A DNA stretch of 64,000 nucleotides from Marinobacter sp. (GCF_040904845.1 NZ_JBBDSR010000070.1:10475-74474), one strand, 5' to 3'. Shown: positions 2 to 53,730, numbered from the stretch's first letter. Notes: generated from the letters alone by a model not told the origin. Program-made: numbers and translations.

Positions 2-307
2 CAGCAGGAATCCGGGCTTCATGACGTGCTGGAGTATCGCCGACGGGTAGACCCTGCCCTGGAACAGCTGATGGACGAGGGCGAAGCAGTGCTGATGGAG
101 CGGGTGCGGGCATTCGTTGCCCGGTATGTGCGGGACGATGTGGAAACCACCGCGTTCTGCCTGTTTGCCATGGCCGAGGGCATCGTTCACCGGCATGTTT
201 TCCAGGGGCATGACGATGTAAAGCGGGACGACCTGATCGAGAAAGGCACGCAAATACTGGCCGCCTATTTTGAAAGCCAGACCAACATTCAGAACCACAA
301 AACGTGA
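2..307 (+). CDS. TetR-family regulator, C-terminal effector-domain part (5' end outside window)
   Basis: The frame is open from the window edge to TGA 305-307. The helical C-terminal pattern (FCLFAMAEGIVHRHVF) is TetR-like, and it lies directly upstream of an amidohydrolase gene. Confidence 0.5.
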   Translation, partial: QQESGLHDVLEYRRRVDPALEQLMDEGEAVLMERVRAFVARYVRDDVETTAFCLFAMAEGIVHRHVFQGHDDVKRDDLIEKGTQILAAYFESQTNIQNHKT

Positions 308-314
308 GACCATC

Positions 315-2201
315 ATGAACAACGCTGCAACAGACTCTGTTACCTGGGATTACCTGATTCACGGTGCCAAGGTTTTTGACGGCACCGGCGAGTTGCCCCG
401 CCGCGAGGACATCGCCATTGCCGACGGCAAAATAGCCGCCCGGGGCGAAGGACTGGACCCAAACAGTGCACGCAAGGTTATCGATGGCAGCGAATACTGG
501 GCCATGCCCGGGCTGTTTGATATCCACACCCATTACGATCTCGAGCTGGAAGTTGCACCGGGGCTGCCGGAATCCGTTCGTCACGGCACCACCACCGTGG
601 TCATCGCCAACTGCAGCCTGGGGCTGGCTTTTGGTTCCCAGCGCAAGGACGGCGCTGACCCGATTGTGGACTGCTACGCCCGGGTCGAAAATATTCCAAA
701 AGAGGTGCTTCGCGCCACCGCGGACAAAGTGGACTGGGAAAACCCGAAGGCCTACCTGCAGCACCTGAACAAGCTCAGCCTCGGCCCAAACCTGGTGACC
801 ATGCTGCCCCATTCCATGCTCAGAATTGAAGTAATGGGCTTTGACGCCAGCATCTCCAGAGAGCCCACCGAAGACGAGTTGCAGGCGATGGAGGCACTGC
901 TGGAACAGGCGCTGGATGACGGTTACGCTGGCTTTTCCACCGACGCCCTGCCTTTCCACTATCTGGCGAACCAGCCCAATACCCGCAAGACCATTCCCAC
1001 CCAGTTTGCCAAGTACGCCGAAATCAAACGGTTGACGGACGTGGTGCGTCGCAAAGGCGGCGTGTGGCAGGCAACGCCACCCAAGGACAGCACCATTGGC
1101 ACCCTCAAAACCTTTTTGCTCAGCTGCGGCCGGCTCCACGGCAAACCGCTGAAAACCACGGTGGTGGCGGCACTGGATGTGCAGAGCAATCGCAAGATCA
1201 TACGGCTGGCCCGCTTGCTGGCGCGGGTACTTAACTCCCGCTTGCTGAAGGGCGACTTTCACATGCAGGCCCTGGCTGCGCCCTTCAAGGTCTGGTCCGA
1301 TGGCGCGGTAACGCCGCTGTCCGAGGAAATCGAAGAGCTGCGGATTCTTAACGAAACCGAACTGGAAGACCGCGAAGGCCGGATGAAAATCCTCAACGAT
1401 CCAGAGTACATTCAACGCTTCAAGGCGATGTGGATGAGCGGCAAAACCGGTTTCGGCCTGAGCCGCCTCAAACGCCTGTTACGGCTCGAAGATTATGCGT
1501 TCAACCGCACTCTGGAAGACATGACCATCGACGTCTGCCCGCTCAAAGCGTGGGAAGGCAAAACCTTTGCGGACGTGTTTGACCGGGTAAAGGCCGCCAA
1601 CTCAGACGAGGCCGTCCAGGGGGGGGGAGCAGAGACCACCCTGCTGAAAGATTACTTCACCAACGTAAAGGACGAAGGCGATTTCGTGCTGGCCATGCTG
1701 CGGGCGTTTGACCGGGATCTGAGCTGGCACACCGTTTCCGCCAACCGCGACGAAGGCATGGTGCGCAACCTGTTGATGGACCGCCAGCTACTGCCAGGAT
1801 TTAATGACAGCGGGGCTCACCTGACCAACATGGCGTTTTACGATGGCAACCTGAGGGCGCTGAAGATGGCCTCCGACGGTGGCGATATCGATGTGGCCTA
1901 CATCGTCCGCCGCCTCACCCGTGACCCGGCTCGCGTGTTCGGGGTGAAAGGAGGCAGCATGGAAGTGGGCGATCAGGCAGACCTGACGTTGATCGATCCG
2001 TCTGCTCTGCGGCGTTTGGACCACAACAACACGGTTAAGCGCCAGTACCGCGACGAGTTCCAGCACGAACAGCTGGTTAACCGCACCGACGGCGTGGTGC
2101 CACTGGTGATGATCGCTGGCCATCCGGCCTGGCAGGGGGATGATTTTGATGCCTCACTAGGCAGCAGGAAAATGGGGACGGTGCTGGAGACAACGTTTTA
2201 A
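315..2201 (+). CDS. Amidohydrolase-superfamily protein, N-acyl-D-amino-acid deacylase-like
   Basis: N-terminal DYLIHGAKVFDGTG..IAIADGKI and the metal-binding GLFDIHTHYD motif are present. Start moved from 270 to ATG 315, just after the upstream TGA at 305-307. Confidence 0.75.
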   Translation: MNNAATDSVTWDYLIHGAKVFDGTGELPRREDIAIADGKIAARGEGLDPNSARKVIDGSEYWAMPGLFDIHTHYDLELEVAPGLPESVRHGTTTVVIANCSLGLAFGSQRKDGADPIVDCYARVENIPKEVLRATADKVDWENPKAYLQHLNKLSLGPNLVTMLPHSMLRIEVMGFDASISREPTEDELQAMEALLEQALDDGYAGFSTDALPFHYLANQPNTRKTIPTQFAKYAEIKRLTDVVRRKGGVWQATPPKDSTIGTLKTFLLSCGRLHGKPLKTTVVAALDVQSNRKIIRLARLLARVLNSRLLKGDFHMQALAAPFKVWSDGAVTPLSEEIEELRILNETELEDREGRMKILNDPEYIQRFKAMWMSGKTGFGLSRLKRLLRLEDYAFNRTLEDMTIDVCPLKAWEGKTFADVFDRVKAANSDEAVQGGGAETTLLKDYFTNVKDEGDFVLAMLRAFDRDLSWHTVSANRDEGMVRNLLMDRQLLPGFNDSGAHLTNMAFYDGNLRALKMASDGGDIDVAYIVRRLTRDPARVFGVKGGSMEVGDQADLTLIDPSALRRLDHNNTVKRQYRDEFQHEQLVNRTDGVVPLVMIAGHPAWQGDDFDASLGSRKMGTVLETTF

Positions 2202-2238
2202 TCCGTTGTTAAGTTCACACTATCCGCAGATCCAGCAC

Positions 2239-2272
2239 GAAAGCCCTGGGAGCAGTTGCTTCCGGGGCTTTC
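2239..2272. terminator. Hairpin between convergent genes (possible bidirectional terminator)
   Basis: GAAAGCCC..GGGCTTTC stem with a partly paired interior. It lies between the stops at 2201 (+) and 2283 (-). There is no strong T-run. Confidence 0.4.
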
Positions 2273-2282
2273 ATCTCCGGTG

Positions 2283-3356
2283 TTACGGGCGCGCTTCCAG
2301 AACAATGTTGAACGGCGTTTCCGCCGCCCGGCGTACGTGTCGGAAACCACCCTCCTTGATGACTTCCGTCAGTTTACGCTCGCCAGCCTGGGCACCAAGC
2401 GCGAGCCCCGTCTGTTGCGCCAGGGCCGTAGGCACGCAGATGCTGGTCGAGGCTGCGTAGAACAACCGCCCTACCGGGTTGAAATTATCACTCAGCTCAT
2501 CGCCGGCCATAGGCTCCACGATCATCCAGGTACCGTCCGGCTTGAGCTGCCTGACTATGTGGGCAGCAGCCCCAACCGGGTCGCCCATGTCATGCAGGGC
2601 ATCGAAGCAGGTCACAAGATCAAAATCACCCTCTTTGAAATCGGCCGCCGTTGCCTGTTCAAAGCGAAGCCGACCGGAATCCAGGCCCTCCTCATCACGA
2701 TGCTCGTTGGCAGCTTCAATGGAGCCACCGTGGAAGTCGTAACCGATGAAGGTCGAATTCGGAAATGCGGTCGCCATCAACAGCGTTGAATGACCATGGC
2801 CGCAGCCGATATCAGCCACCTTTGCACCCCGTTCGAGCTTTTCGACCACGCCGTCCAGCGCCGGCAACCAGTTCTGCACCAGATTGTGCACGTAGCCCGG
2901 GCGAAAGAACCTCGCCACCGCGCAGAACATGCACGGAGCCTGGTCACCCCAGGCCACGCCCTCCCCCGTGCGAAATGCATTTCTCACCTTGGGCTCGTTC
3001 TCAAAGGTGGTGAAGGCGTTCTCAAAGCCCCCCATCATGTAAACCGGGCTGTCTTCGTCGGCGAACACCATCGCTTGTTCCGGGGGCAACCGGAACCGTT
3101 TGGTTGAGGCGTCGTAGTCCAGATAGTTTGAGGCGGCGTGATGGGCCAGCCATTCACGAAGATACCGCTCAGAATAGCCGGTACGTTCGGCCAGTTCCGC
3201 CGAAGTGGCGGGGCCTCCGCTCTGCAACTCCCGATACAGCCCGAGTTTATCTCCAATCTTCACCAGCGCCGCACTGTACGCGCCTCCCAGGTCACCAAGC
3301 ACCTGCCCCACAAAGGCATTGAGCTTGTTTTCATCAAACATTTGAATGGCTTCCAT
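2283..3356 (-). CDS. Class I SAM-dependent methyltransferase with N-terminal winged-helix-like domain
   Basis: SAM-binding motif VADIGCGHGHS is present. GGGAGAAAG Shine-Dalgarno lies upstream of ATG 3356. Confidence 0.75.
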   Translation of the reverse strand: MEAIQMFDENKLNAFVGQVLGDLGGAYSAALVKIGDKLGLYRELQSGGPATSAELAERTGYSERYLREWLAHHAASNYLDYDASTKRFRLPPEQAMVFADEDSPVYMMGGFENAFTTFENEPKVRNAFRTGEGVAWGDQAPCMFCAVARFFRPGYVHNLVQNWLPALDGVVEKLERGAKVADIGCGHGHSTLLMATAFPNSTFIGYDFHGGSIEAANEHRDEEGLDSGRLRFEQATAADFKEGDFDLVTCFDALHDMGDPVGAAAHIVRQLKPDGTWMIVEPMAGDELSDNFNPVGRLFYAASTSICVPTALAQQTGLALGAQAGERKLTEVIKEGGFRHVRRAAETPFNIVLEARP

Positions 3357-3509
3357 GATCTTTCTCCCTGAAACAGTAAAGGTATGAGTCTGTCGCAGCA
3401 GCGAACGTACACTCTTCCCTTTCAGAAACCGGGCGCGCGGCAGGCAGTACTATAGTGGGAGGATAGGTCTTCCGGATGAATGATCATCCGTCCGGAGCGT
3501 ATGACTGTT

Positions 3510-4559
3510 CTACCGGATTTGTTGAACCGACCGCTCACGACGCCAGGTCGCGGGTGGCTGGCCCACGGCACGTTTGAAGGACCGGCTGAAGGCTTCTTCC
3601 GATTCATAGCCCACTTCATGGGCGATGGTGGCCATCTTGGCATTGCTCTCGACCAACAGATTGGATGCAATCTGAATGCGCCAGCATCTCAGGTAATGCA
3701 TCGGGGGTTGACCGACCAACTCGACAAACCGCTCCTGCAGCGCGGAGCGTGAAAGACCAGCATGGTCAGAGAGTTTTGCCAGCGTCCAGGCTTCCGCCGG
3801 CCGGCTGTGCATCAGGCTGAGAACTCGGGCAACGTGTCGATCCCGCAGTGCGGCGAGCCATCCGGTCTGGCTTTTTGGCACGGAACTCAGGTAAAGCCGG
3901 ACCAGATCAACTAACATCATTTCGCTCATCCGTTCGAGAACGGCTTCACCACCGGGCCTGGCCCCACGGGACTCCGTTTCCGCAAGCCTGGCGAGCTGAC
4001 CGGCCCAGCTGTCCTCCGACAACTCGCTGGCTCGGGCATGAATCACCCTTGGTAATGCGGAAAGCATAGGATTGAACGGACCGCTGTCGCAGCCCAGAAA
4101 GCCGCACAGCAACGTGGCAGCGGGCGGATAAGAGGCGATTTCAGTTTGAGGGGCGGCCGGCTGAATGCGTTTATCATCTTGTTGGCGAACCATGAACGGT
4201 AAGCCGGTGCGCAGCTTCAGATTGGCAATCAGGAACGGAAGGTCCGGTTCTGCCCGCAAGCCAGGGACACTGGACATCACGTGGGCATCCCCGTGGGGAA
4301 AGAGCACGACATCCCCCGCATTCATTTGAAACGGTGGCTCCCCTGTTATACCGGCCCAACAGGTGCCACCCACCACGACATGGTATTCCATCAGGTGTTC
4401 GGACCCCGGCATCACGGCATTGGCAATCAGCGCAGAAGCGGGTGCCTCGGTGACCCAGGTGCCCACACATTCGACATTGAAAAACAGAGCCCCGCGCAGG
4501 CGAATACGGCGAAGTAATCCGGAAAGCACATCCTCACTCATGGTGGTTGCTCCGGTCAT
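3510..4559 (-). CDS. AraC-family transcriptional regulator with N-terminal cupin-like domain
   Basis: C-terminal double HTH (LSDHAGLSRSALQERF ... IAHEVGYESEEAFSRSFKRAVGQPP). Divergent from the threonine aldolase gene. Confidence 0.8.
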   Translation of the reverse strand: MTGATTMSEDVLSGLLRRIRLRGALFFNVECVGTWVTEAPASALIANAVMPGSEHLMEYHVVVGGTCWAGITGEPPFQMNAGDVVLFPHGDAHVMSSVPGLRAEPDLPFLIANLKLRTGLPFMVRQQDDKRIQPAAPQTEIASYPPAATLLCGFLGCDSGPFNPMLSALPRVIHARASELSEDSWAGQLARLAETESRGARPGGEAVLERMSEMMLVDLVRLYLSSVPKSQTGWLAALRDRHVARVLSLMHSRPAEAWTLAKLSDHAGLSRSALQERFVELVGQPPMHYLRCWRIQIASNLLVESNAKMATIAHEVGYESEEAFSRSFKRAVGQPPATWRRERSVQQIR

Positions 4560-4742
4560 TGAAGGTTGCCGAGACTAACACCTGAACGTCTGATCAAACC
4601 CTATTCAACCATAACCTGAGACGGAAAGCGCTCAGAGCTTCCTCACCGTCACTTAATGTTCAAACGTCTACTGGAAATCGGAGGCTTTTCCTGTAATTTG
4701 GACGTTTCATAGCAAACTCAGGGTACCGCGGGAGCGCATAAC

Positions 4743-5780
4743 GTGTCAGATTCCGAACAGTTCGCCAGTGATAATTACAGCGGAATATGCCCCGAGGCCT
4801 GGAACTCGATGGCGGCGGCCAACCGGATGGATGAACCGGCCTACGGTGAGGATCGCTGGACCACGAGAGCGGCAGACGGCCTGCGGGATCTGTTCGGTAC
4901 CGACTGCGACGTGTTTTTTGTGTTCAACGGCACCGCCGCCAACTCCCTGGCTTTGGCGTCTATCGGGCAGTCCTTTCACAGCGTGATCTGCCACGAACTG
5001 GCTCACATCGAGACCGATGAGTGCGGTGGGCCGGAATACGCGTCCAATGGGGCAAAACTGCTCCTTGGCGAAGGCCGCAATGGCAAACTCACACCCCAGA
5101 GCATTGAACACCTGGTCACCAAGCGCACCGACATTCATTACCCCAAACCCAAGGCGGTCAGCATTACCCAGGCCACCGAAGTGGGCACGGTGTACACCCC
5201 GGACGAATTGCGCGCCATCCGCGCGGTGGCTGACCGGCACAAACTGAATGTCCATATGGACGGAGCCCGCTTTGCCAATGCGGTCGCCGCCCTGGGCGTG
5301 CACCCGTCTGAAATCACCTGGAAAGCCGGCGTGGATGTGCTGTGTTTTTCCGGCACCAAAAACGGACTGGCTCTGGGGGAGGCGGTGATTTTCTTTAACC
5401 GCCAGCTGGCCGAGGATTTTGAATGGCGCTGCAAGCAGGCCGGGCAACTGGCCTCCAAGATGCGATACATCTCGGCCCCCTGGTGTGGCCTGCTGGAAAA
5501 CGATGTCTGGCTGAGCAATGCCCAACACGCCAACGCCTGCGCTGCCCGCCTTGCGGAAGGGCTTCAGGGCTTGCCCGGGGTTTCCTTGCGCTACCCGCGC
5601 GAGGTCAACGGGGTATTTGTGGATCTGCCCGAACCCCTGCAGGCCGCTCTGCGTGATCGCGGCTGGCGCTTCTACGATTTCATCGGGGGCAGCTCACGGC
5701 TGATGTGTTCCTGGTCGACCAGCGAGCAGCAGGTCGACCGGTTTCTTGCCGATGTGAAGTCGCTTTGTGAACGCCCCTAA
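4743..5780 (+). CDS. ltaE: Low-specificity L-threonine aldolase (PLP-dependent beta-eliminating lyase family)
   Basis: N-terminal FASDNYSG, NGTAANSLAL and the GTKNG PLP-lysine region are present. GTG start is preceded by GGGAG. Confidence 0.8.
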   Translation: MSDSEQFASDNYSGICPEAWNSMAAANRMDEPAYGEDRWTTRAADGLRDLFGTDCDVFFVFNGTAANSLALASIGQSFHSVICHELAHIETDECGGPEYASNGAKLLLGEGRNGKLTPQSIEHLVTKRTDIHYPKPKAVSITQATEVGTVYTPDELRAIRAVADRHKLNVHMDGARFANAVAALGVHPSEITWKAGVDVLCFSGTKNGLALGEAVIFFNRQLAEDFEWRCKQAGQLASKMRYISAPWCGLLENDVWLSNAQHANACAARLAEGLQGLPGVSLRYPREVNGVFVDLPEPLQAALRDRGWRFYDFIGGSSRLMCSWSTSEQQVDRFLADVKSLCERP

Positions 5781-5845
5781 AAACTGGATAATGGCCGCCA
5801 CTAACGTCACGTCGCGCCACATTCTTCAATCCAGGTGAATCTGTA

Positions 5846-8029
5846 ATGGAAATCAACGTCAACTTTCTCGACAACCTCAGACTTGAAGCCAAGTTTGATG
5901 ATTTCACTGTCATTACCGACCAGCCCATTCGCTACAAGGGCGATGGTTCCGCGCCCAGCCCGTTTGATTACTTCCTGGCATCGTCTGCCTTGTGTGCGGC
6001 CTATTTCGTGCGGGTGTACTGCAAGGCACGGGACATTCCCACGGAGAACATCCGCCTGTCCCAGAACAACATCGTGGACCCGGAAAACCGCTACAACCAG
6101 ATCTTCAAAATTCAGGTGGAATTGCCGGAAGACATCTCCGATAAAGATCGGCAAGGTATCCTGCGGTCAATTGATCGATGCACGGTCAAGAAAGTGGTGC
6201 AAACCAACCCGACCTTCGAGATCGAAACCGTCGACAACCTCGGCTCAGACGCCCAGGCCCTGCTGATGACCCAGCCCGAGGGCGGCACCCAAACCTTTAT
6301 TGAAGGCAAAGATCTGCCCCTGGAGCAGACCATCGCCAACATGACCCGCATCCTCGAGGATCTGGGCATGAAAATCGAGATTGCCTCCTGGCGCAACATT
6401 GTGCCCCATGTGTGGTCACTGCACATTCGCGATGCGGCCTCACCGACGTGTTTCACCAATGGCAAAGGGGCCACCAAGGAAAGCGCTTTGTGTTCAGCGC
6501 TGGGCGAATTCATCGAACGGCTGAACTGCAACTTCTTCTACAACGACCAGTTTTTCGGGGAAGACATCGCCAACAGCGAGTTCGTGCATTACCCGAATGA
6601 AAAATGGTTCAGGCCGGGTCCCGATGACGAGTTGCCGGAGGGCATTCTGGATGATCACTGCCTGGCGATCTACAACCCGGATGGCGAGCTGTTTGGCTCC
6701 AACCTGATTGACACCAACTCCGGCAACACCGAACGCGGCATTGTATCCCTGCCCTACGTACGTCAGTCAGACGGCGAGGTGGTGTATTTTCCGTCAAACC
6801 TGATCGAGAACCTGTTCCTCAGCAACGGCATGAGTGCCGGTAATACTCTGCAGGAAGCCCAGGTTCAGTGTCTCTCGGAAATTTTTGAGCGGGCGGTGAA
6901 GAAGCAGATCATCGAAGAAGAGCTCGCACTGCCGGACGTGCCCATGCACGTGTTGGAAAAATATCCAAACATCCTGGAAGGCGTTCAGGCACTGGAAGCC
7001 CAGGGCTTCCCCACTCTGGTCAAGGATGCCTCCCTCGGCGGCCAGTTCCCGGTGATGTGCGTCACCCTGATGAACCCCCGCAACGGCGGTGTGTTCGCCT
7101 CTTTCGGTGCCCACCCGAGCTTTGAAGTCGCCCTTGAACGAAGCCTGACCGAACTGCTTCAGGGCCGCAGTTTCGAGGGCCTGAACGACGTGCCACCGCC
7201 CACGTTCAACAGCCTGGCGGTCACCGAGCCCAACAACTTTGTGGAACACTTTATTGATTCCACGGGGGTGGTGTCATGGCGCTTCTTCAGTGCGAAGTCG
7301 GATGTGGAATTTTGTGAATGGGATTTTTCCGGCACCACCGCCGAAGAAGCCGCGGGCCTGTTCAGCATTCTGGAGGACTTGGGCAAGGAAACCTACGTGG
7401 CCGTATACGAAGAGCTGGGCGCACCGGTGTGCCGCATCCTGGTGCCTGGCTATTCGGAAGTGTATCCGGCGGACGACCTGGTGTGGGACAACACCAACAA
7501 GGCGCTGGATTATCGCGAGGATATCCTCAACCTGCACCGCCTGAGCGATGATCAACTGAGCGATCTGGTGGAGCGCCTGGAAGAAAGCCAGATGGATGAC
7601 TACACCGACATCATCACCCTGATCGGTATTGAATTCGATGAGAACACGGTATGGGGGCAGCTCACCATTCTTGAGCTGAAGCTGCTGATCAATCTGGCTC
7701 TGCAGCAACATGAAGAAGCCCTGGAGCGGGTGGAGACCTTCCTGCAGTTCAATGACAACACCGTGGAGCGTAATCTGTTTTACCGCGCCGTGAGCGCGGT
7801 GCTGGAAATCACCCTCGATGATGAACTTGAGCTGGCGGATTTTCTGGTCAATCTGCAGCGAATGTATGGCGAGGACACCATCACCAATGTGGTGGGCCTG
7901 GTGACTGGCGAGGTCCGTTTCCATGGTCTGACACCGACCAGTATGCGGTTGGAGGGTCTGGATAAGCACCTGCGCCTGGTCGACAGCTATAAAAAGCTTC
8001 ACGCGGCCCGAGCAGCAAAAATTGTCTAA
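5846..8029 (+). CDS. OsmC-domain / YcaO-domain fusion protein with C-terminal helical (TPR-like) region
   Basis: aa 1-130 are OsmC/Ohr-like, with two Cys (SSALCAAY, IDRCTVKK). The YcaO core carries two ExxER ATP/Mg motifs (ALGEFIERL, CLSEIFERA). AGGTGA Shine-Dalgarno lies 7 nt before the ATG. Confidence 0.85.
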   Translation: MEINVNFLDNLRLEAKFDDFTVITDQPIRYKGDGSAPSPFDYFLASSALCAAYFVRVYCKARDIPTENIRLSQNNIVDPENRYNQIFKIQVELPEDISDKDRQGILRSIDRCTVKKVVQTNPTFEIETVDNLGSDAQALLMTQPEGGTQTFIEGKDLPLEQTIANMTRILEDLGMKIEIASWRNIVPHVWSLHIRDAASPTCFTNGKGATKESALCSALGEFIERLNCNFFYNDQFFGEDIANSEFVHYPNEKWFRPGPDDELPEGILDDHCLAIYNPDGELFGSNLIDTNSGNTERGIVSLPYVRQSDGEVVYFPSNLIENLFLSNGMSAGNTLQEAQVQCLSEIFERAVKKQIIEEELALPDVPMHVLEKYPNILEGVQALEAQGFPTLVKDASLGGQFPVMCVTLMNPRNGGVFASFGAHPSFEVALERSLTELLQGRSFEGLNDVPPPTFNSLAVTEPNNFVEHFIDSTGVVSWRFFSAKSDVEFCEWDFSGTTAEEAAGLFSILEDLGKETYVAVYEELGAPVCRILVPGYSEVYPADDLVWDNTNKALDYREDILNLHRLSDDQLSDLVERLEESQMDDYTDIITLIGIEFDENTVWGQLTILELKLLINLALQQHEEALERVETFLQFNDNTVERNLFYRAVSAVLEITLDDELELADFLVNLQRMYGEDTITNVVGLVTGEVRFHGLTPTSMRLEGLDKHLRLVDSYKKLHAARAAKIV

Positions 8030-8245
8030 GCTTATTTGTGTTAATTCACATCAATTTTCTTTACAGGCTTGTAACTCACACCTATGCCGTTATTCTGGAG
8101 GGTAGGTATTAACCGAGGTACGAGCCATTTTTCATCCTCAATCAGCAGTCGGTCTTGATACACCCCCCTCTTCCGGCGAGGCCGTTCCGGTCTCGCCAGC
8201 GGCATCTTTGCTGCACTCTTCAAAACCCGAAAAGGAGAACAGATC

Positions 8246-9211
8246 ATGCGAAAGCTAATGCCTGTTGCTGCGCTTTGCGCGCTATCCGTCCCGGCAATCG
8301 CCCAGGCGGATTGCGGTGAAGTGTCGATCACTGAAATGAACTGGGCCTCCAACACGGTTGTCACCAACGTCGCCAAATTCATTATGGAAGAAGGGTATGG
8401 CTGCGACGTCACTATCGTGCCCTCGGACACCGTGCCTGCTGTCACTTCGGTTGCCGAAAATGGCGAGCCGGATATCGTGACCGAACTCTGGCTGAACTCC
8501 GCCGGTGAGGCTTACCTGCGCCTGGAGGAAGAAGGCAAGATTGAGCGGCTGGCGAAAGTGCTTGATCCCGGCGGTGTCGAAGGCTGGTGGATTCCGACCT
8601 ATCTGGCGGAGAAGCACCCTGAGCTGACAACCATTGAGGGCGTCATGGAAAACCCCGAGCTGGTGGGCGGAACCTTCAACAACTGTCCGAGCGGGTGGGG
8701 CTGCCGTGTGGTCAGTGACAACCTGATCCGAGCGCTGGATCTCCAATCGTCCGGTATTGAAGTGTTTAACCACGGTTCCGGTGAGACCCTGGCGTCGTCC
8801 ATGGCCTCCGCAGTGCAGGATGAAGAGCCCTGGTTCGGCTACTATTGGGGCCCGACCATTCCACTCGGCAAGTACGACATGACCCGCGTTGAGCTGGGTG
8901 AGTACAAGGAGGATGTGCACAGCCGTAACCAGACCCAGGATGCGGACAACCCCGGCGTGTCCGAATTCCCGGCGGCGACCATCCTGACTTCTGTCACCAC
9001 CGACTTCAAAGATCGTGAACCGGAAGTGACCGAGATGCTCAGCAATCTCACGTTCAAAACCGACACCATGAGCGGTCTGTTGGCGTGGATGGACGAGAAT
9101 AACGCGTCTGCGGAGGAAGCTGCCGTGTACTTCCTGAGCAACAACAGCGACGAATGGTCCAACTGGCTGAACGAGTCCGCCCGTGAGCGCCTCGCTGCCG
9201 TGCTGAACTGA
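8246..9211 (+). CDS. proX: Glycine betaine/proline-type ABC transporter substrate-binding protein
   Basis: Signal peptide (ALCALSVPAIAQA) and ProX-like ITEMNWASN..TELW motifs are present. AAGGAG Shine-Dalgarno. First gene of a three-gene ABC operon. Confidence 0.8.
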   Translation: MRKLMPVAALCALSVPAIAQADCGEVSITEMNWASNTVVTNVAKFIMEEGYGCDVTIVPSDTVPAVTSVAENGEPDIVTELWLNSAGEAYLRLEEEGKIERLAKVLDPGGVEGWWIPTYLAEKHPELTTIEGVMENPELVGGTFNNCPSGWGCRVVSDNLIRALDLQSSGIEVFNHGSGETLASSMASAVQDEEPWFGYYWGPTIPLGKYDMTRVELGEYKEDVHSRNQTQDADNPGVSEFPAATILTSVTTDFKDREPEVTEMLSNLTFKTDTMSGLLAWMDENNASAEEAAVYFLSNNSDEWSNWLNESARERLAAVLN

Positions 9212-9319
9212 TAGCCGTCCTGCCGTGGCAGGGCCGGAACATCGGCTCTGCCCACTCCGGCTGCCGGAGTACTGCACCACAACCCATTATCCGTAATGCG
9301 CAGGGGACACTGAACGCAA

Positions 9320-10354
9320 ATGGCTAGCTATGATTTCCTGTTTTCATCACTCGGCCTTGAGCAGTGGTGTGCCGAAGGACAAAGCGATGCACCCATGACC
9401 ATGGCGGCACTGCTTAGAAAATCTCAGGGCACCCAGGCGGAGCCCGACTCCCTCTGGGACCTGCCTTTTCCCTCCATGGATGCGCTTAATGCCTCCTGCG
9501 CGTCGTTTCCCAAATCCCGGGAACTGACCAGAGGCCTGGAAGAGGGCTTTCTGGCCATCAAGGACAGCCTCAGCATTGTGCTGGATCCACTGACTCAACC
9601 ACTCAGTTGGGCCCTCGACGGTGCCCTCTACAGCATGCTGACTACGCCCTGGTGGATCGTCATCCCGGTGCTTCTGGCGGTGGTGTTTGTGGTCTCCAAA
9701 TCCTGGAAGCTGGTGGCGTTCGTGGGTGCCAGCCTTGCCCTGCTGGCCTTTATCGATTACTACGACTACGCCATGCAAACACTGGCGATTATTTTTGTGT
9801 GCGCATTTCTGTGCGTGATGATCGGCGTGCCCATCGGCATTGCCATGTCCCGCAGTGACATGATGCAGCGGCTAACCATACCCGTACTGGATATGCTGCA
9901 AACGTTGCCCCCCTTCGTGTACCTGATCCCGCTGATCTTCCTGTTCAGTGTGACCGAATCCAAACTCTATGGCATCGCTATCATCCTCTACGCCATAGTG
10001 CCGGTGATCCGCCTGACCAACCTGGGTATCCGCCTGGTGGACAAGGATGTGATCGAGGCCGCCGATGCCTTCGGCATGACCAGCCGCCAGAAACTCTTCA
10101 AGGTTCAAATCCCCCTGGCCCTGCCCAACATCATGGCCGGCGTGAACCAGACCATCATGATGAGCCTGGCGATGGTAGTGATTGCCTCCCTGGTATCTGC
10201 TCCGGGCCTGGGTGTACTGGTGCTGCAGGGCATCCGTAATCTGGAGTTGGGCGTGGGCCTGGTGGCCGGCCTGGGCATCGTGATTCTGGCCGTCGTGCTT
10301 GACCGTGTGACCAAGGCGTCTCTGGCGCGCATCAACGCCTCACAGAAACAGTAA
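9320..10354 (+). CDS. proW: Glycine betaine/proline ABC transporter permease
   Basis: Multi-TM BPD-type permease with a long N-terminal extension, as in ProW. The exact start is uncertain. Confidence 0.8.
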   Translation: MASYDFLFSSLGLEQWCAEGQSDAPMTMAALLRKSQGTQAEPDSLWDLPFPSMDALNASCASFPKSRELTRGLEEGFLAIKDSLSIVLDPLTQPLSWALDGALYSMLTTPWWIVIPVLLAVVFVVSKSWKLVAFVGASLALLAFIDYYDYAMQTLAIIFVCAFLCVMIGVPIGIAMSRSDMMQRLTIPVLDMLQTLPPFVYLIPLIFLFSVTESKLYGIAIILYAIVPVIRLTNLGIRLVDKDVIEAADAFGMTSRQKLFKVQIPLALPNIMAGVNQTIMMSLAMVVIASLVSAPGLGVLVLQGIRNLELGVGLVAGLGIVILAVVLDRVTKASLARINASQKQ

Positions 10355-10365
10355 GGGAGCGAATT

Positions 10366-11424
10366 GTGGATCGGGATATCAAGATTTCCATCCGGAACCT
10401 GTACAAGATTTTCGGCCCCATTCCAGACGTTGCCCTGGCGTACGTTCGTCGGGGCATGGGCAAGGCCGAACTGCTTGAGAAGCACAACCATGTGCTGGGC
10501 CTTCAGGATATCAACGTGGATATCCGTGAGGGTGAGATTACCGTCATCATGGGGCTGTCCGGCTCGGGAAAATCCACCCTTATCCGCCATCTGAACAGGC
10601 TGATTGAACCAACCGCCGGGGAAATCCGCGTCGACGGTGATGATGTGCTGGCGTTCAACGAAGACAAGCTGCGCAAACTGCGGCGGGAACGAATGTCCAT
10701 GGTGTTCCAGAAGTTTGCCCTGCTCCCCCACAAGACCGTGCTGGAGAACGCCGGCATGGCGCTGTTGGTGCGTGGCTATACCGTGGAGGAGTTTGAGGCA
10801 GACGCCAGAAAATGGTTGGCCCGCGTTGGATTGGAGGGCAACGAGAACCAGTACCCCCACCAGTTGTCTGGCGGCATGCAGCAGCGTGTTGGCATTGCCC
10901 GGGCGCTGGCGTCCAATTCACCCGTGATGCTGATGGACGAAGCCTTTTCCGCACTGGACCCGCTCATCCGCTCGGACATGCAGGACCTGCTGTTGGAGCT
11001 GCAGGATGAGCTTCAGAAAACAGTGGTGTTCATCACCCACGATCTGGACGAGTCGCTGAAGCTGGCCGACCACCTGGTCATTCTCAAGGACGGCTACATC
11101 GTCCAGCAGGGCGAACCTCAGGAAATCCTGATGAACCCGAACGACCCGTACATCATCGACTTTATCAGCGATATCAACCGGGCCCGGGTACTGCGTGTGC
11201 GCTCGATCATGAAGAGAACCACGGAAGCGCCGAAAACCTGCGCCGGCGATATCTCCGAGCGGGACAACCTGGAATCGGTGATTGCCAGGTCCGAAGGCGA
11301 CACCGAGCTAACCTACCGGGTAATGCGAAAGGGCGAGCAAATCGGCGTTCTGAACATGAAGGATCTGGTCCGCGCGCTGGTACCAACGGACGGGGCAGCG
11401 GAGACCGAACAGCGGGTGCAGTGA
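10366..11424 (+). CDS. proV: Glycine betaine/proline ABC transporter ATP-binding protein
   Basis: Walker A GLSGSGKST, signature LSGGMQQRV, Walker B VMLMDEAFSALD, plus a CBS-like tail. GTG start is preceded by AAGGGAG. Confidence 0.9.
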   Translation: MDRDIKISIRNLYKIFGPIPDVALAYVRRGMGKAELLEKHNHVLGLQDINVDIREGEITVIMGLSGSGKSTLIRHLNRLIEPTAGEIRVDGDDVLAFNEDKLRKLRRERMSMVFQKFALLPHKTVLENAGMALLVRGYTVEEFEADARKWLARVGLEGNENQYPHQLSGGMQQRVGIARALASNSPVMLMDEAFSALDPLIRSDMQDLLLELQDELQKTVVFITHDLDESLKLADHLVILKDGYIVQQGEPQEILMNPNDPYIIDFISDINRARVLRVRSIMKRTTEAPKTCAGDISERDNLESVIARSEGDTELTYRVMRKGEQIGVLNMKDLVRALVPTDGAAETEQRVQ

Positions 11425-11430
11425 CCGCTG

Positions 11431-12465
11431 TCAGGTTTCCTGCTCCCGCTCTTTTCCCTCGCGGATATTTTCCCGTGCTTCCTGGCGCTCTTCCCGATCG
11501 GCTTCCGGTACGTCGTGCTCATCGGCTCGCGAGGGCCGGAAGCACAAAGTGGCCAGGATCGGGAAATGGTCCGACCCAAACGGAGCCAGCCTCTCGATAT
11601 TTCCGAGGGTAAAGTGTTCCGTGGTAAAGACGTGGTCCAGCGGCCAGCGAAGGTACCAGTGGCCGGCGTGGAACGTGCTGAACATGCCCCTGCCCCGCCG
11701 CGGGTCCAACATGCCGCTGATCCGGCAGAACAGCCGCGTGGTGCGTGACCAAGCCACATCATTGAGATCACCGGCGACGATAGCCGGGTAATCGCCCTGA
11801 CGGATTTGCTGACCAATCAGCAGTAATTCCGCATCGCGCCAGAGGGATTCCTCACTTTCGCTGGGAGCCGGCGGCCTTGGGTGCAGCGCGTGTAACTTCA
11901 CACGGTCACCGCTGGGCAGTTTGAGCCAGCCGTGTATCGACGGAATGTCATCCTGAATCAGATAATTCACCTCGGCTTCCTCCAGGGGAAACCTGGAATA
12001 CAGGTGCATACCGTACAGGTTGTCCAGCGGCACCCGGATAATGGTTGGCCAGTCGCCAAAGGCCTTATCAAGCTGGTCGCCCCACCATTGGTCGGATTCC
12101 AGCGTCAGCAGCACATCCGGTTCCCGCTCCCGCACCTGACGAATCAGGGCATCGCTGTTACGGTTTGGCGTCAGCACATTGGCAACCATCAGTGTCACAC
12201 AGCGTTCCTTCTGGCCCGGCTCGGCAGCGTGCACTTGCAGGGGCCAGAGCCGCGTCCATGGGAGGATGCGGTATAACTGCAGCACCAGGACCACGCTGCA
12301 CAACCCGAGTACCCAGCCTCGCAACTCGCCCTGCGCCAGCCAGAAAGCGGCAATGGCCGTTGCTGTGGCCAGCGTGGCAATCTGCACCCGTGGAAACTCA
12401 CACACCCGAATCCACCAGTCATGAAGGCGCACTTTGCCCAATATGGTTACCGACAGCAGGACCAT
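11431..12465 (-). CDS. Membrane-anchored endonuclease/exonuclease/phosphatase (EEP) family protein
   Basis: N-terminal TM helices and the C-terminal EEP motif FGSDHFPILA. The track starts at TTG 12471 and the first ATG is at 12465, so the start is uncertain. Confidence 0.7.
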   Translation of the reverse strand: MVLLSVTILGKVRLHDWWIRVCEFPRVQIATLATATAIAAFWLAQGELRGWVLGLCSVVLVLQLYRILPWTRLWPLQVHAAEPGQKERCVTLMVANVLTPNRNSDALIRQVREREPDVLLTLESDQWWGDQLDKAFGDWPTIIRVPLDNLYGMHLYSRFPLEEAEVNYLIQDDIPSIHGWLKLPSGDRVKLHALHPRPPAPSESEESLWRDAELLLIGQQIRQGDYPAIVAGDLNDVAWSRTTRLFCRISGMLDPRRGRGMFSTFHAGHWYLRWPLDHVFTTEHFTLGNIERLAPFGSDHFPILATLCFRPSRADEHDVPEADREERQEARENIREGKEREQET

Positions 12466-12580
12466 CGCCAATATCAGTAGAAGATAAGTGATCAGATGCG
12501 CCTCCGGAGGTCATCGGTTATTTACACTTAACACCATAGACCATACGCGCAGATGGCTGAACTTTTGCTATCAACGGATC

Positions 12581-12620
12581 AAAAAAAAGGGCGCGGTCAT
12601 CTCTGACCGCGCCCTTTTCT
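12581..12620. terminator. Bidirectional rho-independent terminator (serves katG)
   Basis: A8-GGGCGCGGTC-loop-GACCGCGCCC-TTTTCT. Perfect 10-bp GC stem with an A-run on one side and a T-run on the other. Confidence 0.85.
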
Positions 12621-12633
12621 CGTAGCCAGTGGA

Positions 12634-14982
<2,349 letters not shown>

Positions 14983-15145
14983 TTATCATGAGGCCGTCTG
15001 CAATAAACCACAGCAGCCACACTCGCAACCCGGACCACAGCAAGCATAGTCCGTTTTTCGCGGGTTGCCGTGGAAGTTGGGCAGTAGCACAATGGCGAAC
15101 ATAAAGGATCACGGGCGCACGTGCGCTGATTGAAGGAGAAACAGC

Positions 15146-16162
15146 ATGGGCCAACAACAGGTACTGGAAGAAACCATTAGCCAACTGATTCACCCCGGCA
15201 AGGGCATTCTCGCTGCGGATGAAAGCGCACCCACCATTGCCAAGCGGTTTACGGCGGTCGGGGTTGAGTCAACCGAAGATAAACGGCGGGAGTACCGTAG
15301 CCTGATGTTTTCCACACCCGGTCTGGGTGATTACATCAGCGGCGTTATTCTTTACGAGGAAACGCTGGATCAGCTCAGCCTCGACGGCGAGCCCATGGCC
15401 GCACTCCTGCAGCGTCAGGGCATTGTTCCGGGCATCAAAGTGGATAAAGGCAAAGGCCCGCTGGCGAACGCACCCGGTGATGAGATCACCTTTGGCCTGG
15501 ATGGACTGGAGGAACGCCTGCTGGGCTTTCGGGAACAGGGTGCCCGCTTTGCCAAGTGGCGCGATGTGTACCACATCACCGACACCAACCCCAGCCGGCT
15601 GGCGATGGAAGCCAACGCAGAAATACTCGCCCGGTACGCCGCTGTGTGCCAGTCTCTGGGCATCGTCCCGATTGTAGAGACCGAAGTGCTGATCGATGGC
15701 CATCACACGATCGAACGCTGCGCCCAGGTCAGCGAAGCGGTGCTAAGGGAGGTTTTCCGGGCGCTTGATCGCCACGGTGTTGGTCTGGAAGGCATGCTGC
15801 TCAAACCCAGCATGGTGACACCCGGTAAATCCCACACCAGCCAGGCCAGCCCGGAGCAGGTGGCACAAGCCACGTTGAGCGTATTCAGACGCGCCGTGCC
15901 GGCGGCCGTTCCGGGCATTGTGTTCCTCTCCGGCGGCCAAACGCCGGAACAGGCAACGGCCAACCTCCACGCCCTCAATCAACACGCCCCACAACCCTGG
16001 CAACTGAGTTTTTCCTACGGTCGCGCGCTTCAGGAACCGGCCCAGCATGCCTGGGCCGGAAACCTTGAGAATGGACCCGCCGCCCAGGATGCCCTGCACC
16101 TGCGGGCAAAGCTGAACAGTGCCGCACGCAATGGGGCCTACAAACCGGAGATGGAGAGCTGA
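15146..16162 (+). CDS. Class I (Schiff-base) fructose-bisphosphate aldolase
   Basis: GKGILAADES..TIAKRF N-terminus and LLKPSMV (Schiff-base Lys region) are present. GAAGGAG Shine-Dalgarno. Confidence 0.85.
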   Translation: MGQQQVLEETISQLIHPGKGILAADESAPTIAKRFTAVGVESTEDKRREYRSLMFSTPGLGDYISGVILYEETLDQLSLDGEPMAALLQRQGIVPGIKVDKGKGPLANAPGDEITFGLDGLEERLLGFREQGARFAKWRDVYHITDTNPSRLAMEANAEILARYAAVCQSLGIVPIVETEVLIDGHHTIERCAQVSEAVLREVFRALDRHGVGLEGMLLKPSMVTPGKSHTSQASPEQVAQATLSVFRRAVPAAVPGIVFLSGGQTPEQATANLHALNQHAPQPWQLSFSYGRALQEPAQHAWAGNLENGPAAQDALHLRAKLNSAARNGAYKPEMES

Positions 16163-31116: not shown

Positions 31117-31192
31117 TCCCTGATAGCTCAGTTGGTAGAGCAACGGACTGTTAATCCGTTTGTCGCTGGTTCGAGCCCAGCTCGGGGAGCCA
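31117..31192 (+). tRNA. asnT: tRNA-Asn (anticodon GTT), CCA encoded
   Basis: 76-nt cloverleaf. Acceptor TCCCTGA/TCGGGGA, anticodon loop CTGTTAA, T-arm GCTGG-TTCGAGC-CCAGC, 3' GCCA. Confidence 0.95.
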
Positions 31193-38384: not shown

Positions 38385-39545
38385 ATGTCACAACCACCGA
38401 GTTCGTCAGTCCGTCACGGTACCGGACTGGACGCCGAGCGTCAGGCCGCAACACATGTCACCATAATAGGCATGTTACTGGATGCCGCTCTGGGTGTCAT
38501 TAAAGTCATCGCCGGTGCACTTTTTCATTCCCAGGCGCTGCTCGTCGACGGCATTCACTCGTTCACAGACGTCGCCTCGGACTTTGTGGTACTCGGCGTT
38601 ATGCGTGCGTCCCGCCGGGCCCCGGATCAGAATCATCCCTACGGCCACCAGCGAATTGAGACCATGGGGACCATGGTGCTCGGTAGCATACTGATCGCCG
38701 TTGGTGCGGCTCTGGCCTGGGATAATATTCTGCGGCTGATGGCCGGTGCCGGTCACCAGCTACCGGGCTGGCCCGTTCTGGTTGCAGCGGCCGCTTCGGT
38801 AATCGGAAAAGAGTGGATCTACCGCTATACCCGGCGAGTGGGAGAATCCATTCGCTCCGAACTGATCATTGCCAATGCCTGGCACAGCCGCACAGACGCT
38901 TTCTCGTCGGTGATTGTGCTGTTTTCCACCCTCGGCGCAATGGCGGGCTTTATCGTGCTCGATATCCTGGCGGCCGTGGTCATTGCAGGCATTGTGATTC
39001 ACATTGGCTGGAAATTCACCTGGAGCGCCGTCAAGGAACTGGTGGATACCGGCCTGTCACCGGAAGACACCGACAGGCTGAAAGCCATTGCCCGTGACAC
39101 CGAGGGCGTGCGCAACGTTCACGAGTTGCGCAGCCGCCGGATGGGCCACGACATCCTCCTGGATGTCCATCTGGTGGTAAGGCCTGAAATCAGCGTATCC
39201 GAAGGCCATCAGATTGGTATGCGGGTCGTGACCGGTATGCGGGATGTGCTGGACAACATCCTCGACATCAACTTCCACATTGACGCGGAAAACGACGAGA
39301 GCCACACCCAGACGTCTGAGCAACTGCCGTCCAGGGAAGACATTCACGGGTTGCTTGTGGAACACCTCGGCGAACTGCCGCCCCACACCCGAATGCACCT
39401 GCACTACCTCCGCAACAAGGTTTACATGGAGCTGTTTTTTGACTCGCCGGCCGATACACCCGCGTTCAACAGTTCCGACCTTAGCAGACAATTCGCAGGC
39501 TACCCCTGGTTCGGCAGCTTGCGGGTGTGGTCAGCCAACCCTTAA
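38385..39545 (+). CDS. Cation diffusion facilitator (CDF) family metal transporter with extended C-terminus
   Basis: CDF TM motifs are present (ALLVDGIHSFTDV, AWHSRTDA). Start trimmed from 38244 to ATG 38385 (AAGGAA Shine-Dalgarno). TATAAT box at 38351-38356. Confidence 0.85.
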   Translation: MSQPPSSSVRHGTGLDAERQAATHVTIIGMLLDAALGVIKVIAGALFHSQALLVDGIHSFTDVASDFVVLGVMRASRRAPDQNHPYGHQRIETMGTMVLGSILIAVGAALAWDNILRLMAGAGHQLPGWPVLVAAAASVIGKEWIYRYTRRVGESIRSELIIANAWHSRTDAFSSVIVLFSTLGAMAGFIVLDILAAVVIAGIVIHIGWKFTWSAVKELVDTGLSPEDTDRLKAIARDTEGVRNVHELRSRRMGHDILLDVHLVVRPEISVSEGHQIGMRVVTGMRDVLDNILDINFHIDAENDESHTQTSEQLPSREDIHGLLVEHLGELPPHTRMHLHYLRNKVYMELFFDSPADTPAFNSSDLSRQFAGYPWFGSLRVWSANP

Positions 39546-41041
39546 CGGCGGCGATTGTCTTCCATGCGGGAGAGGAACTCCTGCATGATGAGGGTGTACA
39601 GCTCGCCCCCCAGAAAACGGTCCTCCACGCCAGCGTCAATACTCGGGTTGTCGTTCACTTCAATGACCGCCACGCGGTTGCCCGACTGTTTGATATCCAC
39701 GCCATACAGGCCGTTGCCAATCAACCGGGTGGCATTCAGCGCCGCCTGAATCACATTTCGCGGTACCTCGTAGGTGGGCATGGTTTCGAAGCCGCCGCTG
39801 CCCACCTCCGCACCACCATGCTGATAAATCTGCCAGTGGCCTTTCACCATGTAATATTTACACGCGTAGATGGCCCGGCCACCCAGCACGCCGATTCGCC
39901 AGTCATAATCGGTATACAAATACTCCTGAGCGAGCACCAGCGCGGACTGTTTGAACAGTTCCTTTAATCCGGCTTTCAGGGATTTTTCATCCTCGGCCTT
40001 GTTGACCCCACGGGAGAACGCACCATCGGGAATCTTGATCACCGCCGGAAAGCCCAGTTCGCGGATTACCTGCTCTGAGGCATCCTTCTGATCCTTAGAC
40101 AGAATCAGGGTCCTCGGTGTCGGTACTTTGTTGTTTTTCAGCAGATCCGCGAGAAACACTTTATTGGTGCAGCGCAGGATGGAAACCGGATCATCGATCA
40201 CCACCATGCCCTCCGCTGCAGCCTTGCGGGCAAACCGGTAGGTGTGATGATCAATGGCCGTCGTTTCGCGAATAAACAGCCCGTCGTATTCCGGCAGGCG
40301 CATGTAATCGCGGCGGGTAATCTGCTCTACGTTGATGCCCAGCTTCCGCCCGGCTTTCTCGAACCGGCTGAGGGCGATCTTGTCACTGGGCGGCATTTCC
40401 TCTTCCGGATTGACCAGCACTGCCAGGTCGAAGCGGTAGCGGCGACGGGTGCGGGGCTTGCGCCACACCATGCTGCTGAACCGATCAAAGGCAGCGGCAA
40501 AAACATCCTGCTCTTTTTCGTTGAGATCCGCCGGTGCGGCCGGCTTCATGGACGCTATCTGCCAGGTCTTCCGGCGCTTGAAGACCACCTCCAGAATCGG
40601 GCAGGGAAAGCGTTCAAACAGCGCGCGGGCAACCGGCTTCAGATCCGCATGGCTGGCCTGGCCGAAAAAGGTGCGGATGCGCACTTCGTGAGTGGCATTG
40701 CGGTCGTCACTGGCCGGGTCAATTTCAGAACCGGCGGCCTCCAGCCAGGTCATGACACTGGCATCCAGCTCTTCAAGCTCAAGAGAGAACAGCCCTTTGC
40801 GACTCAGGTCATTCAGGGTCATCACCGATGGCACCACATGATGCCCCCGCGCTTCGGCAAGCAGGGAACAGTAATACCCGCGGCTCAGATACTTCGCACT
40901 CTGGCACAGGTTGATCACCCGCACCCGGCTCGCCGCTGGGGCCGAAAACTGAAGATACTGATCAAAAGTAAGCACGTCTTCGCTGGGGTAATAAGGTGCC
41001 CAGTCTTTGGCGCGATCCACGACGATAAGCAAACGGGACAT
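39542..41041 (-). CDS. RimK-family ATP-grasp ligase with about 200-aa N-terminal RimK-associated domain
   Basis: The C-terminal half is RimK-type ATP-grasp (GFPAVIKIPDGAFSRGV, IGVLGGRAIYACKYYM, YGVDIKQSGNRVAVIEVNDNPS). Start trimmed to ATG 41041 (GGGAGGA Shine-Dalgarno). Confidence 0.85.
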   Translation of the reverse strand: MSRLLIVVDRAKDWAPYYPSEDVLTFDQYLQFSAPAASRVRVINLCQSAKYLSRGYYCSLLAEARGHHVVPSVMTLNDLSRKGLFSLELEELDASVMTWLEAAGSEIDPASDDRNATHEVRIRTFFGQASHADLKPVARALFERFPCPILEVVFKRRKTWQIASMKPAAPADLNEKEQDVFAAAFDRFSSMVWRKPRTRRRYRFDLAVLVNPEEEMPPSDKIALSRFEKAGRKLGINVEQITRRDYMRLPEYDGLFIRETTAIDHHTYRFARKAAAEGMVVIDDPVSILRCTNKVFLADLLKNNKVPTPRTLILSKDQKDASEQVIRELGFPAVIKIPDGAFSRGVNKAEDEKSLKAGLKELFKQSALVLAQEYLYTDYDWRIGVLGGRAIYACKYYMVKGHWQIYQHGGAEVGSGGFETMPTYEVPRNVIQAALNATRLIGNGLYGVDIKQSGNRVAVIEVNDNPSIDAGVEDRFLGGELYTLIMQEFLSRMEDNRRR

Positions 41042-41235
41042 GCAGGTCCTCCCTGAGGATAAATCCGCTCGATTGCCGGCAACAATACGCCCGCCCCCAC
41101 AAGCGCACAATGCTTTGAAGATGCGTGCTTTTACGCATGATGGCGCTATTTGCGCTTGCCCGACTCTCTACCATAATAGCGTGATACGGGAAGCCTGCGA
41201 GCCGCCCCGACCACGATGTACCAAGGCACGTATTT

Positions 41236-53728: not shown

Positions 53729-53730
53729 GG

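Follow-up and report, generated by a model that had tools for sequence, protein, structure and literature searches.

Watson et al. 2020 reported a thioamide at Met82 of Escherichia coli uL16 and put forward YcaO as the candidate enzyme (PMC7550191), and Rice et al. (March 2026) have since shown that ycaO is needed for the conversion of the Met82 amide to the thioamide in E. coli (PMC13063428). The purified enzyme (EcYcaO), a dimer, installs the thioamide on full-length uL16 when given ATP, Mg2+ and Na2S but does not act on short peptides, and it binds uL16 through a large acidic surface with a dissociation constant of approximately 10 nM (PMC13063428). Rice et al. predicted the same activity for acidic YcaOs that group with EcYcaO, employing as criterion a strongly acidic isoelectric point (pI; 4.4 for EcYcaO) complementary to basic uL16, and confirmed it for the K. 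pneumoniae and P. aeruginosa YcaOs by co-expression in E. coli delta-ycaO/delta-roxA (PMC13063428). Here, we analyze a gene from a 64,000-nucleotide stretch of Marinobacter sp. chromosomal DNA (GCF_040904845.1 NZ_JBBDSR010000070.1:10475-74474; hereafter the window) whose 727-residue product carries an OsmC-like domain ahead of a YcaO of this type.

The gene is a single open reading frame (ORF) that starts with ATG (Table 1), and since M1 is invariant in 81 gammaproteobacterial and betaproteobacterial homologues, the start is right. Three Pfam domains were matched far beyond chance, namely OsmC (PF02566; aa 32-127, E 2.5e-10, 41 bits versus a cutoff of 27.5, with the whole profile covered), YcaO (PF02624; aa 205-536, E 1.4e-66) and YcaO_C (PF18381; aa 553-723, E 1.3e-73). 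At full length, the protein scores 1503 bits with the curated equivalog TIGR03549 (cutoff 900), aa 2-723 lying on profile positions 1-722 of 723, while its YcaO part scores 891 bits with NF040716, the equivalog for E. coli-type YcaO (cutoff 700). An identical entry (P0001; 100% identity) is named by NCBI 'OsmC domain/YcaO domain-containing protein [Marinobacter sp.]'. The calculated pI is 4.42 for the whole protein, 4.39 for the YcaO part and 4.59 for the OsmC-like domain, with 4.36 for EcYcaO. An earlier note, made from the DNA alone, had described one 727-aa ORF joining OsmC-like, YcaO and helical tetratricopeptide repeat (TPR)-like parts, and the Pfam and NCBIfam assignments agree; aa 544-726 are all-helical in the AlphaFold2 model and form the counterpart of the EcYcaO TPR domain, described as a dimerisation domain that possibly binds uL16 (PMC13063428).

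The comparison with EcYcaO (P75838; PDB 4Q84, 4Q85 and 4Q86) covers the entire YcaO portion. The 4Q84 sequence aligns to aa 148-724 of the window protein with an E value of 3e-179, EcYcaO residue 2 lying at aa 148, and the identity is 49% over 578 aligned residues; the AlphaFold2 model superposes on 4q86 with a template modelling (TM) score of 0.96 and a root-mean-square deviation of 1.8 Å. The two proteins share a stand-alone gene, a pI of approximately 4.4, the C-terminal TPR domain and the ATP/Mg2+ residues, whereas EcYcaO lacks the OsmC-like domain. All nine ATP/Mg2+ positions of EcYcaO (S71, E75, E78, N187, E199, E202, R203, R286 and E290, a list that, other than for E202, reportedly comes from Dunbar et al. 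2014) are occupied by identical residues in the window protein. Both ExxER motifs, which the earlier note had taken to be intact, are indeed at the canonical positions (Table 1), and E221, E224, R225, E345, E348 and R349 are invariant across the 81 sequences. E202 is the residue replaced in E202A, the inactive (catalytically impaired) EcYcaO variant used by Rice et al. (PMC13063428).

The word 'OsmC' does not occur in the main text of Rice et al. (PMC13063428), and we examined whether the P. aeruginosa enzyme tested there (PaYcaO; UniProt Q9I2H8) resembles the window protein at its N-terminus. The PaYcaO sequence was rebuilt on metagenome contigs from the published primers, and not taken from UniProt. 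The forward primer in the supplement of that paper encodes (M)VEVKVNFL, which resembles the start of the window OsmC domain (MEINVNFL) and not that of E. coli YcaO. An exact-match scan with the gene-specific part of this primer yielded six loci, five of which contain a complete ORF of 756 aa that starts with (M)EVKVNFLDNLRLEARFDDF and ends with IRKRK and a stop; in one locus (L081), the complement of the reverse primer matches the end of the same gene. Because both cloning primers match one gene encoding a 756-aa fusion, PaYcaO is, as judged from its rebuilt sequence, an OsmC-YcaO fusion with the OsmC-like, YcaO and YcaO_C parts of the window protein. It follows that a member of the fusion family already has a demonstrated substrate and chemistry.

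The rebuilt PaYcaO is 77% identical to the window protein across all 727 residues, OsmC domain included, and conserves C50, C59, C112 and all ATP/Mg residues; it differs by a 4-residue insertion and by a longer basic C-terminal tail, the one ending in IRKRK. Among the 12 positions matching putative uL16-interface residues of EcYcaO that Rice et al. replaced by Ala, the window protein and PaYcaO are identical at 10, while EcYcaO and the window protein are identical at 6. The earlier note had proposed a sulfur-involving backbone modification of a housekeeping protein, which matches the published thioamidation of uL16 Met82 (PMC13063428). Its statement that target and chemistry were unknown is outdated, given the passing score with NF040716 and the validation of the 77%-identical fusion PaYcaO on P. 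aeruginosa uL16 (PauL16; PMC13063428); NF040716 also provides the family with an already curated function, which the note itself had named as a finding that would speak against its proposal.

By orthology, we consider it very likely that the window gene is the Marinobacter version of the E. coli/Pseudomonas-type YcaO and that its product thioamidates the loop methionine of uL16 in an ATP-dependent manner. The R-M-G-K-G loop that holds this residue is nearly universal in bacterial uL16 (PROSITE L16 signature); rplP lies outside the 64-kb window. In the proposed reaction, the YcaO domain would bind ATP/Mg2+ through S217, E221, E224, N333, E345, E348, R349, R432 and E436, and the long loop of folded uL16 would enter the active site, where the backbone carbonyl oxygen of the methionine would be phosphorylated. 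A sulfide equivalent would then displace the phosphate, leaving a thioamide beside the peptidyl-transferase centre. Dimerisation and the grip on the very basic uL16 would fall to the acidic surface (pI 4.4) together with the C-terminal TPR domain. These steps have been shown for homologues and are transferred to the Marinobacter protein by orthology.

The name carried by NF040716, which the protein matches above cutoff, suggests another role, since it describes an accessory factor in the RimO-dependent beta-methylthiolation of uS12 Asp88; the OsmC cysteines would then aid the sulfur chemistry. Several homologues are so named by JGI and UniProt, and the name goes back to Strader et al. 2011, as cited in PMC7550191. 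Such a main role is improbable, as AlphaFold3 gave non-confident models of EcYcaO with uS12 (interface predicted TM score, ipTM, 0.31) and with RimO (0.16), and as direct, ATP- and sulfide-dependent thioamidation was shown for uL16 instead (PMC13063428). Neither rimO nor rpsL was found among the annotated genes of the window.

The YcaO superfamily is best known for the chemistry of peptides that are made ribosomally and modified post-translationally (RiPPs), and a few non-acidic members of the EcYcaO group are found in RiPP clusters (PMC13063428). In principle, the window protein could act as a RiPP synthetase for azolines, amidines or thioamides, with its precursor and partners encoded at another place in the genome, but this deserves hardly any credence: the protein is acidic, unlike those exceptions, it reaches 31 bits with the SagD-type model TIGR03604 (cutoff 219), and its 77-94% identity over several orders is characteristic of enzymes whose housekeeping substrate is static. 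The gene neighbourhood also argues against it. Within approximately 8 kb on each side of the ORF (window 270-16162), we find ten neighbour genes, encoding an amidohydrolase, a methyltransferase, an AraC regulator, a threonine-aldolase-like lyase, an OpuA-type betaine ATP-binding cassette transporter (three genes), an EEP nuclease/phosphatase, KatG and a class I aldolase; further ordinary, unrelated genes in the surroundings are dus, one for a hemerythrin, and htpG. No E1-like, ThiF, nitroreductase-type dehydrogenase, TfuA or credible precursor gene is present among these neighbours, and the intergenic gaps measure at most approximately 220 bp and hold just 24-54-aa ORFs without Pfam match.

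For 80 related genome loci, all flanking ORFs of 90 aa or more, taken from up to 8 kb on each side of the fusion gene, were also grouped into families. The most widespread family occurs in just 10 of the 80, indicating that there is no conserved neighbour and hence no partner gene; the window OsmC-YcaO gene is truly stand-alone. The earlier note had seen no RiPP partner genes within several kb and had judged a role as a classical RiPP cyclodehydratase unlikely, and both conclusions hold with the wider comparison. The katG gene (catalase-peroxidase) at window 12634-14982 (-), 4.6 kb downstream of the fusion gene, might invite a link to the OsmC-like domain; since no neighbour is conserved across the 80 loci, its proximity is probably a coincidence.

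A more distant parallel is offered by methanogen YcaO, with or without TfuA (TIGR03266; 6CI7, 6PE3), which thioamidates a glycine of McrA and thus performs the same ATP-dependent backbone O-to-S exchange on a folded housekeeping protein. It is a remote relative, as the window protein scores 37 bits with this model versus a cutoff of 365 and the TM score is approximately 0.6 on the smaller target, and it has neither the TPR nor the OsmC domain. Many methanogen-type systems use TfuA and ThiS-type sulfur delivery, which are absent around the window gene. Rice et al. likewise report that no TfuA accompanies uL16-type YcaOs (PMC13063428).

The fusion is widespread. The search with the full-length protein yielded no fewer than 8000 protein clusters, and the three-domain architecture (PF02566, PF02624, PF18381) is present in all 240 listed homologues, including all 120 listed from that search. 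Genome matches of the fusion that are 77-94% identical come from Marinobacter, Halomonas, Microbulbifer, Alcanivorax, Shewanella, Pseudoalteromonas, Idiomarina, Marinomonas, Colwellia, Pseudomonas and Nitrosomonas. After clustering at 50% identity, a single full-length fusion representative is found among the 150 best matches, and the full-length relatives in the 50% clusters otherwise examined are stand-alone YcaOs of approximately 570-600 aa. Slow divergence of uL16-type YcaOs has been ascribed by Rice et al. to their static partner (PMC13063428).

A more divergent branch of the fusion is present in the Bdellovibrionota, in Halobacteriovorax and further Bacteriovoracaceae (P0121 and P0271-P0389), at 60-68% identity and with the three OsmC cysteines invariant. 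Because Bacteriovoracaceae prey on marine gammaproteobacteria, a horizontal transfer of the fusion is possible. These fusions lie beyond the Pseudomonadota, the group that Rice et al. name in their title (PMC13063428). Two further proteins, P0213 (1189 aa) and P0221 (1472 aa), have unusual architectures with an E. coli-type YcaO domain near the C-terminus; in one of them, an N-terminal S-adenosylmethionine-dependent methyltransferase domain is accompanied by several hundred unassigned residues.

In the OsmC-like domain, the earlier note had picked out Cys50 and Cys112, which do occupy OsmC-family positions, lying opposite the two family cysteines in alignments with 9wo1 and 2pn2, both OsmC-like structures; the note missed a third invariant cysteine, C59. 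All three are invariant in the 81 sequences, and in a 63-sequence alignment that includes Bacteriovoracaceae down to 60% identity they are invariant again, together with R29, Y30, K31, D41, R62 and R111. A direct comparison with E. coli OsmC by hhalign aligned the C112 region alone, C112 opposite C125, in a very weak match (probability 0.2) that does not cover the R29 and D41 positions. A by-eye motif comparison with E. coli OsmC, the sequence of which was verified, tentatively places R29 and D41 roughly at the expected OsmC Arg/Glu positions.

OsmC and Ohr thiol peroxidases (E. coli OsmC, 1QWI; Ohr, 1N2F) belong to the same Pfam fold family and have two cysteines at the peroxidatic and resolving positions. 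The window domain differs from them in its third invariant cysteine and its fusion to an enzyme, and it matched none of the OsmC- or Ohr-named NCBIfam models at E <= 10; at this threshold, the domain alone matched only TIGR03549, NF041052 (43 bits versus a cutoff of 95) and one irrelevant family. Neither phmmer nor a profile search of the PDB with this domain reached OsmC or Ohr structures. By these sequence comparisons, the domain does not qualify as a genuine OsmC or Ohr, and since it falls outside both NCBIfam subfamilies, the label of two-cysteine thiol peroxidase is an assumption. Its nearest neighbours in sequence and structure are YhfA/COG1765-type OsmC-like proteins (2PN2, 1ML8 and 2ONF; 1ML8 is E. 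coli YhfA) and the hydrolase-OsmC fusion 9WO1. Their resemblance to the window domain is weak (E 1e-9 to 1e-3; 16-19% identical residues when aligned by structure), and these neighbours allow no functional transfer because no biochemical function has been established for them.

These relationships bear on a thiol peroxidase or redox sensor role, in which the domain would guard the sulfide/thioamide chemistry or a C50-C112 disulfide would stop uL16 thioamidation under oxidative stress; the latter takes up the redox gating suggested in the earlier note. We view this role as conceivable, with considerable doubt. It would account for an OsmC fold with cysteines at both canonical positions and for the invariant R29 and D41, if their tentative, motif-level correspondence to the conserved OsmC Arg and Glu is correct; it would also suit the named carriers of the fusion, largely marine and soil bacteria and largely aerobic, whereas enterics have the stand-alone form. 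The lack of a match to any OsmC- or Ohr-named model argues against it, and the closest structures are of uncharacterised OsmC-like proteins, not of proven peroxidases. In addition, a generic peroxidase would not be expected to outdo the fused catalytic domain in conservation, and the nearby katG is not a conserved neighbour.

The domain is joined to YcaO by approximately 20 residues that are probably flexible, as suggested by the AlphaFold2 single-chain model, in which the predicted local distance difference test (pLDDT) value is <50 at aa 130-145 and 50-85 across the OsmC domain. OsmC folds are obligate intertwined (domain-swapped) dimers, and the low values would fit a tethered OsmC module that is natively dimeric, which a one-chain prediction cannot show. 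In a non-redox role, the domain would be an additional acidic module for docking, chaperoning or dimerisation, keeping free, very basic uL16 (or else an intermediate of assembly) in place for the YcaO domain. The acidic pI of the domain (like the uL16-binding surface of EcYcaO), the dimeric state of both OsmC folds and EcYcaO, and a very high conservation that fits contact with a static partner are consistent with such a module. It is nevertheless rather unlikely, as a purely structural role does not readily explain three cysteines that are invariant over 60-94% identity, two of them at family catalytic positions.

We tentatively propose that the OsmC-like domain is a tethered three-cysteine accessory sulfur or redox module, possibly one that carries and resolves a persulfide and passes its sulfur on to the amide activated by YcaO, although we would not call this likely. 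One cysteine would carry a persulfide obtained from a cysteine desulfurase system, and a second would resolve it by forming a disulfide, freeing the sulfur to the activated amide; the module would in this way take the place of the donor from which stand-alone E. coli YcaO has to obtain sulfur in trans. A mechanistic analogy, with no homology, is provided by the tRNA thiolation enzymes ThiI and MnmA, in which ATP activates a carbonyl oxygen, the sulfur comes from a Cys-persulfide and the disulfide is closed by a second Cys. They activate RNA by adenylation, whereas YcaO phosphorylates a peptide amide. The invariant C50, C59 and C112, the greater mean column identity of the OsmC domain (0.92) versus the catalytic domain (0.87), and the variable, low-confidence linker speak for a sulfur relay, as does the absence of a TfuA/ThiS-type gene nearby. 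Rice et al. found that the in vitro reaction required non-physiological sulfide, and they state that the physiological sulfur donor is unknown (PMC13063428).

Several observations weigh against this proposal. The E. coli and Klebsiella YcaOs, which have no such domain, still thioamidate uL16 in vivo (PMC13063428), indicating that the chemistry does not require it, and PaYcaO works in E. coli (PMC13063428). Our literature search on OsmC with YcaO and on OsmC with persulfide gave no sulfur-carrier role for an OsmC-family protein, and a sulfur-transfer domain is absent from the other N-terminal extensions of related YcaOs (P0128, P0184, P0213, P0221 and P0233), one of which carries a methyltransferase. 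In the proteome-wide AlphaFold3 screen against EcYcaO, E. coli OsmC reached an ipTM of 0.15 and TusA 0.16 (PMC13063428 supplement); neither YhfA nor IscS is among the entries examined. The sub-threshold 'plausible' list of Table S2 holds SufE (ipTM 0.65), SufA (0.61) and the glutaredoxin-like NrdH (0.61), which the authors did not single out, SufE being a persulfide carrier (PMC13063428). On these modelled interfaces, SufE, SufA and NrdH could be candidate sulfur donors for stand-alone EcYcaO.

A cysteine of the YcaO domain was also considered as part of a relay. C342 (codon at window 6869-6871) lies three residues ahead of E345xxE348R, at the position of G196 in EcYcaO; every one of the 81 gammaproteobacterial and betaproteobacterial fusions has this cysteine, and Gly or Ala takes its place in 23 stand-alone YcaOs. 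We dropped it as a fusion-specific relay cysteine, and it is not obligatory to the fusion, because the divergent fusion P0121 has Ala at this position and the Bacteriovoracaceae set is not uniform there. At C202 (E. coli C56), all fusions keep the cysteine, whereas stand-alone YcaOs vary.

The window protein is thus a member of a known family, because TIGR03549 is curated, the exact protein is annotated by NCBI and a fusion member has a demonstrated substrate. The sole paper that we found mentioning TIGR03549 employs it as a search model. The uL16 thioamide, beside the peptidyl-transferase centre, is among the very few backbone thioamides known in proteins, and in thousands of genomes of Pseudomonas, Marinobacter, Halomonas, Shewanella and Bacteriovoracaceae the enzyme bears an extra, highly conserved three-cysteine domain. 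A sulfur relay, if true, would be the first such role for an OsmC fold and a 'Rosetta-stone' pointer to the type of protein that gives sulfur in trans to stand-alone E. coli YcaO. If the domain handles sulfur or gates the enzyme by redox, it would offer an experimental handle on sulfur delivery to a protein backbone without TfuA, with variants and assays already existing for PaYcaO. Should it do neither, what remains is a housekeeping gene with a correct annotation.

The features of the gene are collected in Table 1. The promoter candidate upstream is weak evidence, since the count of sigma-70-like sites in the consensus scan was not above that in shuffled sequence.

Table 1. Features of the OsmC-YcaO fusion gene, with window positions and, where calculated, the mean column identity across 81 sequences
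Feature	Position	Strand	Mean column identity	Remarks
Sigma-70-like promoter candidate, TTGTGA-16-GATAAT	5765..5792	+		Consensus scan; in the 65-bp gap after the upstream lyase gene
Shine-Dalgarno-like AGGTGA	5833..5838	+		Read off the sequence; 7 nt 5' of the ATG
Coding sequence of the OsmC-YcaO fusion protein	5846..8029	+		TIGR03549 family; predicted uL16 backbone thioamide synthase
OsmC-like domain, aa 1-130	5846..6235	+	0.92	Pfam OsmC; best-conserved region of the protein
Cys50 codon	5993..5995	+		Position of the first conserved (peroxidatic) OsmC-family cysteine
Cys59 codon	6020..6022	+		Third invariant cysteine; same helix as Cys50
Cys112 codon	6179..6181	+		Position of the second conserved (resolving) OsmC-family cysteine; CPV cysteine of 9wo1/2pn2
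Variable linker, aa 131-150	6236..6295	+	0.67	pLDDT <50 at aa 130-145
YcaO ATP-dependent amide-activating domain, aa 151-545	6296..7480	+	0.87	Pfam YcaO; 4q84 match; 4q86 superposition
ExxER motif 1, E221-F-I-E224-R225	6506..6520	+		Aligned to EcYcaO E75/E78/R79
ExxER motif 2, E345-I-F-E348-R349	6878..6892	+		Aligned to EcYcaO E199/E202/R203
C-terminal domain, aa 546-727			0.81	
YcaO_C helical TPR-like domain, aa 553-723	7502..8014	+		PF18381; all-helical model

Elsewhere in the window, a housekeeping cluster at 48996-59634 (-) comprises gyrA, a serC-like class-V aminotransferase gene, pheA, a hisC-like gene, a tyrA/aroA fusion, cmk and rpsA; the fusion joins prephenate dehydrogenase and 5-enolpyruvylshikimate-3-phosphate synthase in one 742-aa ORF. 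In E. coli, ycaO lies directly beside serC-aroA-cmk-rpsA, and the gyrA-rpsA cluster, located approximately 41 kb from the window ycaO gene, may be a remnant of old synteny. Two tRNA genes, at 31117-31189 and 45852-45924 (+), are the only Rfam matches in the window at the gathering threshold. An ORF with a RimK-like ATP-grasp N-terminal domain at 39542-41110 (-) adjoins the gene at 41236-42348 (+), which encodes a GNAT acetyltransferase fused to a DUF3335 peptidase-C39-like domain.

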